A stretch of DNA of 57,901 nt, filler included, from Catajapyx aquilonaris (taxonomy: Eukaryota), in NCBI GenBank assembly GCA_000934665.2. It is 3 parts of 3 records of this genome, joined end to end, with 100 filler letters (N's around TTAATTAATTAA, not from the genome) between each part and the next. Parts side by side here need not be neighbours in the genome. Positions count along the whole stretch, not along the records: positions 19,333 to 38,558 come from JYFJ02006508.1; 2 more parts are not named here. One strand, written 5' to 3'. Both the position numbers and the translations under genes were made by a program. Under the pieces are notes generated by a model. The model did not search any database. It worked only from the letters and a program-made list of their open reading frames with translations, and was not told the origin of the DNA. Of this stretch, positions 19,333 through 38,558 are shown piece after piece; position 1 is the first letter of the stretch, and each line of letters begins with the position of its first letter.

Positions 19333-19779
19333 GGCTTCGGCTCCGGTTCTTCCTTGGGACAATATTGACTGTTCCAAGTCAATATGCCCCGGCCCCAGAC
19401 TGTATGGATCTGGGAGCCGGACATTGTTGTATTGTTGCCCACAGGTGGTAAGGCCTCTTTGGCTAATTACACCTGCAATTCTTTTATCTAGAGTTCAGGT
19501 TGCGATTGCTTATATATAGGGTAAGGGACACAAATTTTGACACGCTTATTTTTGTTTCTCTTCTTAGAAAATGACTGAATACAGCAATGTAGGAAAAATG
19601 GATTTTAATAATGTGCATTGAACAACATTTACCTACTAGGCCTAGCGTGACTTTAAAACATGCAAATAAACAAATAAATTATCACATTCCATATCTGGTA
19701 AATGATCATCAATACTAGCATGCGCTGCAGTCCACCTTGTGTGCACTTTACACTACGTGATTTTATGTTCATGCAGCTA

Positions 19780-20030
19780 CAGGGTGGTCGGAAAGTTTCT
19801 GACATAGCCTTTATTTCTGTGCTGTTATTTCTGTATTTAACTTCAGATATGAATATAATTAAGTAGAGATGTTCCCAATAGTCTAGTAATGAGTATGGCC
19901 GCCATCATTTTTTAAAGCACGCCCTTAATACGCTGGGAGAAACTCTCGGTCAATTTTGTTGTGTACTCCTGGTCCAGCCGGTTGTAGCCTACTATTCACT
20001 GGAATCTAGGTCATGGTTGTTGGTATACGG
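19780..20030 (-). mobile_element. Tc1-type transposon 3' end (TIR plus transposase C-terminus)
   Basis: TA|CAGGGTG TIR at 19780; frameshifted RLDQEYTTKLTESFSQRIK/..NDGGHTHY*. Confidence 0.6.
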
Positions 20031-20169
20031 ACGGGATAAGTTGTGTACTCACATTGATCCACACTGTTACTAGACAATATCAGCAAATTGAAGCAGGTGC
20101 GTGATTTTCAAAAATAAATAGTACGATTTGTGTATTTGGAGGGTCGGGATGTCTACAAATAGAAAGAAT

Positions 20170-20530
20170 AATTATTTGTCTGGGAGGAGGGAGGGCCATG
20201 TCGACATGTGGTTTTTTCTCAGTGTATCAAAAAATGGGCAAATGTATAACAAATGATGAAGGATAAATGGTTCTTTTAAATTTCATAACGTGCAATCTAC
20301 CTCTTCGTTAAATTGAATTTTGTAGGAGTTTATAAAAAACCAAGATGAATTATTTCGAAGGTTAGCCATAAGTCTGAGTGAATGTATTGGGAGTATCGTG
20401 GCATCAGCGGAATTAAGAGCTTAATCCCAATTATTCCCTGAAAACCTCGAAGTTGCGGTGAGCGCAGGAAAATGTCGGAAAAATATTCGGTCAAGTTTGG
20501 TTTAAATAGCAAATGCAAGTTATTATTCAC
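20170..20530 (-). mobile_element. Non-LTR retrotransposon ORF2 C-terminal CCHC fragment
   Basis: YKIQFNEEVDCTL*NLKEPFILHHLLYICPFFDTLR; similar to the fragment at 27280. Confidence 0.6.
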
Positions 20531-21699
20531 AAATTAATACATTACAATAGTTACTGAATTTACGCTTTACAAAATGTGTGGTTGTTCCTGGTCCTTCCTT
20601 ACTCTGCGCTGTTTTTAATGATGGTTGGCCTCCATCAGAGTAAGGTCCGGTCTGCTCGGATGGTTCATCCTGGTGGTGGCTGACGGTTGGATTAGCCCGG
20701 GTTGACTGTTTTCTCCTGGGCCGCTTCTCTCCTCTCCCCCTCCGGAGTACTTCAGGGCGTCCTTCTGGGCCATCATCTTCTGGTTGCCGGCCCTCTTGTC
20801 ACCGTCCGCACCACTTGGATGGTTCACTTCACGTCACATAACTCACACATGGTCGTCACTAATACAAGCCGGTTGCTCCACATTATCGTACAAATAAAGA
20901 AACTCAGACACCCAAAAGTTTAAGTCCGAAAATCCTAACGCGTCAACATGACGCCAACTCGAGCCAAAGCTCCAAATTCGACTGCCTCTTCCACTCTCTT
21001 CATTGTCCCCATCTGCCCCAAAAGTCTCCAAAAAGGAAATGCCCCTATTGGCTAATTACAAAATCTTACACCCCACCTCAGTGGTCAAGTCCAAGACAAA
21101 ATGTCACATACTTCCTGATTGGCAGCTGGAGACAGTGACGTCTTAGTTTCAAACTTGCAAACAACGGCAAAACCCGTTTTCCCAAGCCCCCGTCCACCGC
21201 CTGACTCTCTTCTCCTTTCCCCTCCCTCTCACTCCACTCAGGAATGCCTGAGGGGGACAAAAGGAGACGGATTTGAAATATGAAGCGTGACAAATTGCAA
21301 CCGTTGGAAAAGCAAAGTCGTCGTCTCTAGCAAGAGGCAACCAGGCCTCAAGGTTAAAACTCATCATGTAAAATATACAACAATGAAACACACTCATATA
21401 CGTAGTCGGCACATGTACAAAATGACTACTTTTCCCGTAATTCTCAAATTCCCAAAATATAGCTGACACTACAGTGTGTCGCAATGCCATTCAACAATGC
21501 ACCAGCTCTCGGTATGCACAAAACTGCAGCACAAAGAAAAGCAAAGTCTCCTGCTTCCTTTTACTGAATCAGTGCTGACTGCCTACTGTACCAAAAGAAA
21601 CTCCACGTGAGCCTAATGTTGCAAGCTCAGAGAAAAAAAAATGTTTCCGCTATTTACAGGTTCTGGCCCAAATGTCAGACCATGACAGGAGATTGGAGT

Positions 21700-22130
21700 T
21701 GAGGTATGTTTCAGATATGGGGACTCTTTGATTAAAAAATAATGTGCATATCTCTTGGACTTCTTGAGGCAGTCCTTCTGAAACTCTCAATTGTTTCGGC
21801 CTATCCTACAGTATGTCACACTTGCATTTCATGAAGATATTAGAGCATAATTCCTTTGTTCTTCCTGCAAATCTTCCAGTGAGATTTCAGGCGTAAAAAC
21901 CTGCCATGCCAGTATTGCCACAGTTCGCTTCTCCCCAGTGTTTCAAAAACGAGACTGATCTTGATTCTTATATCCTTGCCTCTTCCTGTCAGAAAATATG
22001 TTTGATGGCAAAGAGCTATGTAACTGTATCAGGAGAATCAGTACATGGGTGTCAGGGGAGCACACTAGAATCTCAGCATCTCATGAAGTAGCATGAGAGT
22101 GTCTGCTTCCTGTGTTCTGAGACACAATCG
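21700..22130 (-). mobile_element. XPG/PIN-like nuclease fragment of an Academ-type (AcademX) transposon
   Basis: Frameshifted motifs QEADTLMLLH, VCSPDTHVLILL, YFLTGRGK, TGRFAGRTK. Confidence 0.55.
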
Positions 22131-22646
22131 GGTATGATGGCGTTCCCTTTTGTAACCGTATCAAACGTGTGACGTGATTGTACGCACATATATAAAACTG
22201 TGGGTCTCTTATCTTTCCTCTTTTATTTAGTTGCCATAAGTAAAGGTAACATGGGATAATATGTGGGAACAGGATAAGGAGTGACGGCCAGTGACCTCCC
22301 AGTGGGAGAAGATCGAAAGGCCTCGAATGACCAGGTGGTGCGGTTTAAATAACTAACGATCTCCAACTGCATGATGGGAGTGGAGAGTGGGACTATAAGG
22401 CGGAGTAATACATAGAAGCAAGTAGAAAACAGGGATGAAACAATCAATGCATGAAATAGGAATGCGTATAGTCAAAAAGTAAACCTCTCACGAACGTAAC
22501 GATGACCTTCTTTGATCTAAATCTTCCTTCTGCTTCTCGCAACATTCAATTTATGGCTGATGAATTATCATGATAAATGACCACAATAAAATGGTTTCAT
22601 TCATTCTGCAAAAGTCACGTAAATAATAATGCTCAGTCCGCACTTT

Positions 22647-36660: not shown

Positions 36661-36779
36661 CCCTGGTCACCCAGGCCTGTCGGATTTTTTTTTTTTTGAC
36701 ACGGTGGTTAGACAATTAAGGATATAGGTCACCATTTTTATGAAATTTTTGGGGGACCAGACGGACTAGGTTGACATGA

Positions 36780-37385
36780 ATTACTCTTAGTTAAATCACA
36801 GGACACAATCATGGCGAGGGCTTCTTCTGGTGACATGCAGACAGGTGTCTTTGATTGACCTCTCCACGTAGTAAGGATTCGGTTCCCTCCAGTTGGTGTC
36901 GACATCGTAGCTTCCTGCAGAAGTTGAGCAGATGCTTCAACACCAGAACTCCTAAGTGCCAGGGTCGTAGCAAAAGACAGCTCTTCTACTGGAGTGGTCG
37001 ATCTAAGTTCCTCCGTTTTTCTCCTCTTGCTTCTTTCACTTGACTCCAGGAAAGATTTTCGTGGCCTTCTTTCTTGTGCATCATTTCTTTCGGTATTGCT
37101 AATGTACCAGTCAACCAAGTCTCATTCTTGGCCATAAATTTGGCATTGCTCCGTCTGGTTTCCTTCCACCTTCGGTCGTATTTAACAAAAAAATTCACCC
37201 GAACATGTTCCTTAAGTCGTGCTTTCACGGACTCTTGTCCGTTTTCGTCCAGATCCAGCCACCCGAAATACATATTCGTAAACGTGCCCTCTTTTTTCGT
37301 CTTTACTGCCTTCTTTCGCCATGTACTTTTCATGAAGTTGACTGCGAATAACTTTCCCTTCATAATTAGAAGCCATACTTTATGA
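36780..37385 (-). mobile_element. Transib-like transposase N-terminal fragment
   Basis: RRWKETRRSNAKFMAKNETWL; RPRKSFLESSERSKRRKTEELR; MSPEEALAMIVSCDLTK. Confidence 0.65.
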
Positions 37386-37389
37386 AAAT

Positions 37390-37483
37390 GTGCGGTATCC
37401 AGTTGGCTATTGTGCTCTTACTCAAACATGAGGGAAGGCAGAATGTGAATTGGGACAAGCTGCAATGGCACAGCTTGGCATGA
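37390..37483 (-). mobile_element. THAP-domain N-terminal fragment
   Basis: MPSCAIAACPN followed by stops. Confidence 0.4.
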
Positions 37484-37632
37484 TTTCCCTACAATAAGCA
37501 AGCAGCCTATTAATATTCCGTCATGCAACAAAATATTCTCAAACTGTGTTTTAATAATCGCTAGGCCTACCTGATTTCTGTAGCCTGCTAACGTTGCTGT
37601 CCGCACCGTATTGACTACACTTTCATCTAAAA

Positions 37633-38454
37633 CAATGGTTCCCAACCTTTTTTGCCTCATGCACCCTTTTTACCATAACCCAGCACACCATTCCCCCCCT
37701 CCAAGATTGGCTAAAAAATTGCATTCCAAATCATACGCATGCAATATTGAAAGTGGTTTATATTTCTGTATAACTTACATTTCCATATGGATTGTTTATA
37801 GTGGATTGTTGCATATTTAATAACAATAGAAAGGGTTGCTGGATTTTAAAATATTAACCAAAATGTGGGTAATTTTTCATTACTAAACATAATTACTGTA
37901 CTTAACCTACTAAGTCACTAGTCATTAAAGTGACTAAACTTCAACAAGTGAAAGGTAGGGTCTTGCAATACAATTTGCTCCTATGAACATTCCAGTCAGT
38001 GAGACACCTGTGATTGTTTTTTCTTCACCAATTCTGTGATACGCGGAGGAATGCTTGATAGGGCACAACGCATGTCATCCTCAACTTCCGATCTATTTCG
38101 TTTCTTTGATTTTATTTCCAACAGAGTTGAAAACCCTGATTCGCAAAGATACGTTGACACAAATGGTAGTAATGCACGGATAGCTCTTTCTGCAACTTTT
38201 GGGTAAGAATCGCACATCAAAGGCCAAAATTCTGTAATTGATTTGTCTTCGAACAAATCTCTTGCTCCTGAATCACTCTTCAGCTCCAGAAATTCATCTT
38301 GACAATCATCAGGAACTTTTTCAACTGACAATTTGAATGGATTTCTCACTAACTCCAACTCATCATCATTGAGTTCAGGAAAATATCGACTGAATTCATT
38401 TTCCAGTTCTGTCAAATTCTGCAAAATTTCGTTTTTTGCAAATTGTGGAAGCAC
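37633..38454 (-). mobile_element. hAT (Charlie/Buster, ZBED8-like) 3' end with TIR
   Basis: FSRYFP...LLPFVSTYLCESGFSTLLEIKSKKRNR...QVSH*; TIR CAaTGGTTCCCAACC at 37633. Confidence 0.88.
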
Positions 38455-38558
38455 TTGGTCTTGTCACCTTATTCATTTACGCATGTATTGATCATAGTGG
38501 TGATTTCATATCATTGTTCCAATCATACCTTTCTCCTTTCCCATTTGATACTTGGTAT

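Follow-up and report, generated by a model that had tools for sequence, protein, structure and literature searches.

The locus described here, a 19.2-kb slice of the Catajapyx aquilonaris genome with transposon remnants oriented almost uniformly, is best compared with the clusters that give rise to PIWI-interacting RNAs (piRNAs) in other animals. According to van Lopik et al. (2023, PMC10643416), unistrand clusters have discrete promoters, and they propose that in the presence of a promoter antisense insertions are favoured by selection; insertions in sense orientation may in addition introduce polyadenylation signals. For the flam-like loci treated in this account, the strand bias is described as driven exclusively by Gypsy long terminal repeat (LTR) elements. 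Clusters rich in DNA transposons were reported from molluscs, with Kolobok and hAT elements (enriched up to 108-fold) in Lymnaea and Dada and Polinton elements in oyster (Jehn et al., 2018, PMC6128900). Small RNAs served to define these clusters, which, according to the same report, accumulate young copies of low divergence. In the whitefly Bemisia tabaci the reported clusters are mono-directional, and piRNAs derive from MITEs (miniature inverted-repeat transposable elements), hAT, TcMar, Academ and MULE elements (PMC6413925). A unidirectional, flamenco-like cluster was also described in Aedes aegypti (PMC7161354).

The window, which is the whole stretch of 57,901 nucleotides that was analysed, is composed of three slices (positions 1-19232, 19333-38558 and 38659-57901; 19232, 19226 and 19243 bases) separated by spacers of the form N44-TTAATTAATTAA-N44. 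The locus under study is the entire middle slice. As the three slices are nearly equal in length, its ends are cut points and no natural limits. The slice forms part of a graveyard of transposons, in which the remnants and the strand they lie on, as well as nesting and low copy number, are observed features. It shares with Drosophila flamenco and the flam-like loci, as these are portrayed in the cited account, the array of remnants, the strong polarity towards one strand and the proposed logic of a promoter combined with antisense selection. In contrast to the Gypsy elements there, the slice contains cut-and-paste transposons and one tail of long interspersed nuclear element (LINE) type, and it is known from sequence alone. 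Reverse transcriptase, integrase, gag and env families were absent from all Pfam outputs for the slice, and no enrichment of antisense Gypsy-type LTR elements was seen. Since the flam-like class is defined, in that account, by antisense Gypsy elements and no retroviral domain was found here, the slice is not flam-like in the Drosophila sense.

The richness in DNA transposons is a feature in common with the mollusc clusters as reported. The whitefly clusters are similar in the arthropod host and in transcription from one strand, which is proposed for the slice, and differ in that they were defined by small-RNA mapping (PMC6413925). The Aedes cluster, as far as it is described in the cited work, is likewise a single-strand archive of foreign sequence outside Drosophila, but is composed of endogenous viral elements instead of DNA transposons. 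A first-pass annotation of this DNA had regarded a cluster dominated by DNA transposons as novel. Such clusters were already published for molluscs (PMC6128900) and whitefly (PMC6413925), and judged by the mollusc report as cited, this type of cluster is not new in kind.

Strand orientation of the transposon remnants

Both strands of the middle slice were scanned for Pfam domains in three ways. All 267 stop-to-stop open reading frames (ORFs) of at least 40 amino acids (aa), 138 on the plus and 129 on the minus strand, were compared with Pfam at an expectation value (E) of ≤0.01. Matches of transposable element (TE) type were obtained for 7 of the 129 minus-strand ORFs vs. 1 of the 138 plus-strand ORFs (Fisher p = 0.031). 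The minus-strand families are THAP, MULE, Myb_DNA-bind_4, DDE_3, THAP9_C, ZSWIM1-3_RNaseH-like/MULE and Dimer_Tnp_hAT, whereas HTH_48, a Mos1-type helix-turn-helix, is the only family on the plus strand. Three matches belong to non-TE families (KorB_C, EGF_Mua-3 and Mu_Gam), compared with about 2.7 expected by chance. A relaxed scan (137 ORFs of at least 55 aa, E≤1) yielded two additional weak matches only, both on the minus strand (Transp_Tc5_C, E 0.015; HTH_48, E 0.031), and no new plus-strand transposon family. For the third scan, the six frames of each half of the slice were translated with stops written as X (12 translations), which also catches remnants broken by stops. One of the six plus half-frames gave a match, to HTH_48 only, while four of the six minus half-frames matched DDE_3, THAP9_C, MULE (2x), THAP, Myb/SANT, hAT (2x) and ZSWIM-RNaseH. 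Compared with the ORF scan, this read-through lengthened the DDE_3 and MULE matches and added a second hAT dimerisation domain.

In addition, homology searches were performed with minus-strand ORFs only; the tests which treat both strands evenly are the Pfam scans alone. Taken together, nine strong remnants were identified (two hAT, two MULE, DDE_3, THAP9_C, Myb/SANT, the LINE-type tail and an unclassified TE-like protein), all of them on the minus strand (binomial p = 0.0039). The two weak remnants, THAP and Tc5_C, have the same orientation. No remnant is found solely on the plus strand, and the single plus-strand piece is located in a palindromic mariner-type element. Thus the remnants, with all nine strong and both weak ones on the minus strand, are predominantly in one orientation, as in uni-strand clusters, and do not show the unbiased arrangement of dual-strand clusters, in which remnants lie both ways (here 7 of 129 minus vs. 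1 of 138 plus ORFs). Since unrelated coding remnants are nearly all on the minus strand, a transcript of the plus strand would be antisense to them. This layout had been proposed before and agrees with the minus-strand Pfam matches. At least six unrelated domain families are concordant, and therefore the polarity is not the habit of one element; it suggests that the locus itself has some property behind it.

The strand bias is real in its direction, but far weaker than initially described. The first-pass annotation had counted 21 of 22 fragments on the minus strand, with a p value of about 1e-5. The Pfam scans of both strands bear out the direction and not the size. Together with the homology searches they yield nine strong remnants, and the recount gives binomial p values of 0.0039 to 0.021. 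Of the fragments listed at that time, Tc1, mariner, P, Myb/SANT, two hAT, two MULE and one LINE piece were recovered, as was, weakly, one THAP piece, while about half of the 22 went without confirmation. Pfam and homology searches, which included no curated transposon library and hence do not refute the names, gave no match for piggyBac, BEN, Transib, Academ (2x) and Sola1 (2x) and no support for a second LINE, a second THAP and a third MULE piece.

Table 1. Features of the middle slice in order of position, followed by those of the flanking slices. E values refer to Pfam matches unless stated otherwise.
Feature	Position	Strand	Evidence and remarks
Short repeat of high copy number, left end of slice	19373-19736		Bin 19333-19973 with summed depth 4955 vs. 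about 27 for unique sequence (X1); loose ends at 19409, 19473 and 19736
Nested insert, 1298 bp	20390-21687		Flanks at about 19974-20389 and 21688-21896 belong to a moderately repeated element
Tc5/pogo-type transposase, C-terminal match (weak)	23859-23954	-	Transp_Tc5_C, E 0.015, ORF 23820-24056; under the Pfam cut-off
THAP zinc-finger remnant (weak)	24299-24463	-	E 8.9e-4 in ORF 24179-24538; read-through 0.059; under the Pfam cut-off
MULE remnant A, C-terminal third of domain	26321-26428	-	ORF 26198-26488, E 1.6e-7, profile 60-97 of 99; read-through 9.4e-6
LINE-type ORF2, C-terminal tail (moderate confidence)	27286-27615	-	ORF 27283-27654; 6 homologues at E≤0.001
hAT dimerisation remnant B	27682-27831	-	Dimer_Tnp_hAT, E 6.9e-5, read-through only; one in-frame stop
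Intact palindromic mariner-type non-autonomous element, 843 bp	29389-30231		Terminal inverted repeats of about 335 bp; TA at both flanks
Two ORFs, probably the earlier 'CACTA-like' call (unverified)	30884-31568 (31272-31568, 30884-31192)	-	No Pfam match
Unclassified TE-like protein, N-terminal approx. 450 codons	31960-33330 (approximate)	-	Open 361-aa ORF 32037-33119; truncated on the 3' side
Myb/SANT-like DNA-binding remnant	33676-33936	-	Myb_DNA-bind_4, E 1.1e-19 (ORF 33655-33945); read-through 7.5e-18
Tc1-type DDE_3 transposase core	33989-34393	-	ORF 33818-34276, E 6.5e-15; read-through 2.2e-17, profile 10-135 of 146; one in-frame stop
MITE-like element	35427-35645		Terminal inverted repeats of about 35-39 bp (35427-35465 / 35607-35645, 92%)
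P-element/THAP9 transposase, C-terminal remnant	35753-36145	-	THAP9_C, E 2.2e-13, open ORF 35630-36163; read-through 1.2e-11
MULE remnant B, whole domain	36298-36582	-	Read-through MULE 2-97 of 99, E 5e-6, and ZSWIM1-3_RNaseH-like, E 5e-4; one in-frame stop
hAT dimerisation remnant A	38056-38256	-	Dimer_Tnp_hAT, E 8.3e-7 (ORF 37999-38463); read-through 4e-5
tRNA-Ala	1918-1991	+	Slice 1
zf-AN1 exon	5173-5346	+	Slice 1
NOL4-like exons	12492-16170	-	Slice 1; HTH_NOL4_2nd, E 1.9e-37
tRNA-Phe	13858-13929	-	Slice 1; between both NOL4-like exon matches
Cyclophilin-type exon	51897-52358	-	Slice 3

The largest ORF of the slice encodes 361 aa and has no Pfam domain. Its eight homologues (E 1.7e-101 to 9e-29, 41-54% identity) reach a length of up to about 600 aa, and a Pfam search of these proteins (P0001-P0008) gave nothing credible. 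In the read-through translation the homology crosses one in-frame stop and then ends. We read the ORF as a truncated, unclassified gene of transposon type. In the Atlas, the family is grouped with arthropod 'hypothetical protein' clusters with 89-168 members, and a row below 0.9 contains DUF6589 in 12% of its members. The depth of the region is 2.4-4.3x the single-copy level. The ORF probably represents an undescribed or unmodelled transposase family, which is apparently multi-copy in arthropods. A member in Frankliniella fusca is named 'Adenylyltransferase and sulfurtransferase MOCS3' and looks mis-annotated. A direct repeat of 65 bp (98.5%; 31714-31778 / 34696-34760), whose copies are 3 kb apart, brackets the block of this ORF, the Myb remnant and the DDE_3 core. 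The latter two are separated by 52 bp and lie in different frames.

The LINE-type tail was searched against a library of 1.84 billion representative proteins. One homologue (P0014) is a LINE ORF2-type protein with Exo_endo_phos and RVT_1 domains, in which the match lies C-terminal of the reverse transcriptase; the other homologues are mixed retroelement chimeras or unclear. On this basis the ORF may be assigned to a LINE-type tail with moderate confidence. The hAT remnant B is located directly upstream of it on the minus strand, in a shared reading frame, so that the two unrelated remnants adjoin within about 30 bp. MULE remnant B extends over ORFs 36403-36666 and 36070-36399; the E values at the ORF level are 3.9e-5 and 0.0034. 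The hAT remnant A lies near the right edge of the slice, at a distance of about 300 bp. For the minus-strand ORFs 30884-31192 and 23131-23436 no homologue was detected in word-index searches for 'longer' proteins, which is weak evidence. The former falls into an Atlas cluster with Plavaka in 11% of its members (141 shared features), a weak lead for the 'CACTA-like' call that gives no classification.

Copy number, nesting and an intact mariner-type element

For the estimation of copy number, contigs of three DNA runs (one sample) and of one small run of unknown kind were placed on the slice at ≥80% likeness. The single-copy level was taken from error-free unitigs and is about 27 in the first DNA run (X1) and about 35 and 20 in the other two. 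The depth is at most 2.5x single copy in 16 of 30 bins and exceeds 10x in six bins, which contain short non-coding repeats, the mariner-type element and hairpins near 26.7 kb. The depth of most coding remnants is near single copy, and therefore these are old relics with few copies that are at least 80% alike. Multi-copy sequences comprise only the mariner-type element (22x), hAT remnant A (9.5x) and two short repeats, one at 180x and one at 535x, besides a few others. From the small run (X5) no more than a handful of short pieces matched, over repeats and with differences at 8-21 letters, and the run is uninformative for the locus.

Nesting is seen in the left part of the slice. A joint from 20389 to 21688, which omits 1298 bases, occurs in two contigs at a depth of 171 in X1, while the omitted sequence itself is present at 1.6x the unique level. 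This joint, present in other copies, shows that the segment 20390-21687 was inserted within a different repeat. The 535x repeat is the MITE-like element, with a bin depth of 14601 and loose ends at 35426/35428 and 35609. It is among the most abundant repeats seen in the sample. A run of C at 34854-34899 (translated as poly-Pro/poly-Gly) terminates in a single N, where contigs appear to be cut, and is likely a weak point of sequencing or assembly.

The palindromic mariner-type element consists of two arms (29387-29722 / 29897-30233) which are 99.7% identical over 337 bp in a self-comparison. At each outer end, TA is followed by TTACCTGGCTCGG. Each arm carries a piece of HTH_48, at 29617-29739 on the plus strand (E 5.1e-4, ORF 29449-29961) and at 29901-30002 on the minus strand (E 0.031, ORF 29883-30170). 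The domain thus occurs in each arm, on the two strands alike, and as to orientation the element is neutral. The depth is about 22x that of unique sequence. Together with the nearly identical arms and the TA flanks, this shows that the family is non-autonomous and was recently active. Intact elements with terminal inverted repeats and target site duplications had been ascribed only to the other two slices, which is contradicted by this element.

No host domain above noise was found in the middle slice by Pfam scans of ORFs on both strands and by six-frame read-through, which is in line with the first-pass statement that the contig holds no host gene. RNA genes were also not detected there by Rfam and tRNA scans. 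The flanking slices are ordinary, with host exons and 0-1 TE-type Pfam matches each, a single weak rve_3 on the plus strand in slice 1 and a single hAT remnant on the minus strand in slice 3. These matches are too few to obtain a strand background from slices 1 and 3. Slice 3 also contains inverted repeats at 43524-44880 and 46360-46980, namely one of 594 bp at 94% and a self-palindrome of 620 bp at 87%.

A candidate one-strand piRNA locus and its alternatives

The arrangement of the slice could be explained as follows. Cut-and-paste elements of several superfamilies and at least one LINE-type piece would have been nested into one another and then truncated and decayed, and the polarity would most likely stem from selection inside a one-strand piRNA precursor locus. 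A transcript made by RNA polymerase II would traverse the plus strand from left to right, starting at a promoter outside the slice, and its processing would yield piRNAs that are antisense to transposase messages. Oppositely oriented insertions would be lost, because they would give rise to useless sense piRNAs or bring in terminators. For this locus, such a transcript, its piRNAs and the selection are inferred. From its layout, the slice is a candidate for a one-strand piRNA source, an identity which we consider quite possible, if somewhat short of probable.

Several observations weigh against a piRNA source. The promoter has to be placed outside the slice, whose ends are cut points without flanks, and the left 4.5 kb (19333-23800) contain no database-supported coding remnant. 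Most remnants are without many close relatives, which fits poorly to a memory of active elements. The mollusc clusters, as described by Jehn et al. (2018), hold young copies, whereas the remnants of the slice are decayed, near single copy and read from DNA alone. Poly(A) hexamers (AATAAA and ATTAAA) show only a mild deficit on the plus strand, with 17 vs. 25 on the minus strand. In the comparison with paralogous contigs (X1), complementary substitutions were counted at 81 (A>G) vs. 74 (T>C) and at 84 (C>T) vs. 88 (G>A); no clear strand asymmetry of the kind linked to transcription is visible in these classes, although the test is weak. Base skews are confounded by coding composition. The statistical support also decreases under stricter counting, to p = 0.0078 if the Myb remnant and the DDE_3 core are taken as one event and to p = 0.021 (9 of 10) if the plus arm of the mariner-type element is counted against the bias. 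Moreover, the slice was chosen out of hundreds of windows, and in that light these p values are modest.

This selection of the slice leads to the possibility that the polarity reflects chance and ascertainment, i.e. that in an ordinary repeat-rich region, one of hundreds of windows, the few independent insertions fell on one strand by accident. In favour of chance are the low number of assignable remnants (9-11), binomial p values of 0.004-0.02, an ORF-level p value of 0.03 and the fact that about half of the earlier 22 fragments are unverified. Against it, the remnants are spread from 23.8 kb to the right end of the slice. We consider chance unlikely. Slightly more credit, though still well on the unlikely side, is given to an ordinary transcription unit of great length (a giant intron, for example, or a long non-coding RNA), from which sense terminators and splice sites are purged while antisense remnants stay, without any piRNAs. 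Such a unit predicts the same polarity as a piRNA precursor, and the slightly lower number of poly(A) hexamers on the plus strand (17 vs. 25) as well as the old, low-copy remnants are as expected of passive intron fill. However, no host exon was found across the 19.2 kb in the Pfam scans of both strands. For relics of DNA transposons within introns, the bias in orientation tends to be mild and far from 9 of 9, which also counts against an intron.

Two further explanations concern the integrity of the array itself. Unrelated pieces abut in one direction, such as hAT followed by the LINE-type tail (27831-27286) and DDE_3 followed by Myb (34393-33676), as could be expected if they were the cargo of one large composite element, Helitron-like or Pack-type, with captured fragments in its own orientation. 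Yet replication, helicase, Rep-type or other carrier domains were absent from the Pfam scans of the slice, the mosaic is largely single copy, and copies spanning its junctions were not found except for the repeats that lack the nested insert. Neither carrier gene or termini nor several copies with common junctions were thus seen, and although termini could lie outside the slice, a composite element is very improbable. Even less probable is an assembly chimera of stitched repeat fragments. Unitigs do break at repeats, and no contig spans 29154-30204 or the whole slice. On the other hand, error-free unitigs of the three runs cover 20364-23316, 23462-25497, 28384-29154, 30204-31093 and 35607-38313, where the depth is uniformly that of single-copy sequence (about 20-35), and stitching alone would not align the coding strands. 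The three DNA runs are probably the assembly's own data and therefore provide no independent support for it.

The slice alone adds little, since its layout is known and both DNA-transposon-rich and one-direction clusters were already published. If it is indeed a one-strand piRNA source, it would be a flamenco-style archive outside Drosophila which is aimed at DNA transposons and not at retroviruses. The genome may hold a whole set of such promoter-driven one-strand piRNA loci, composed mainly of cut-and-paste relics and including this slice, or else a process other than piRNA may orient insertions over tens of kb; this broader view is a little more doubtful than that of the single locus. If small RNAs confirm the piRNA source, the locus would contribute to an understanding of how DNA transposons are archived in one-strand clusters by an arthropod that is not a model species.

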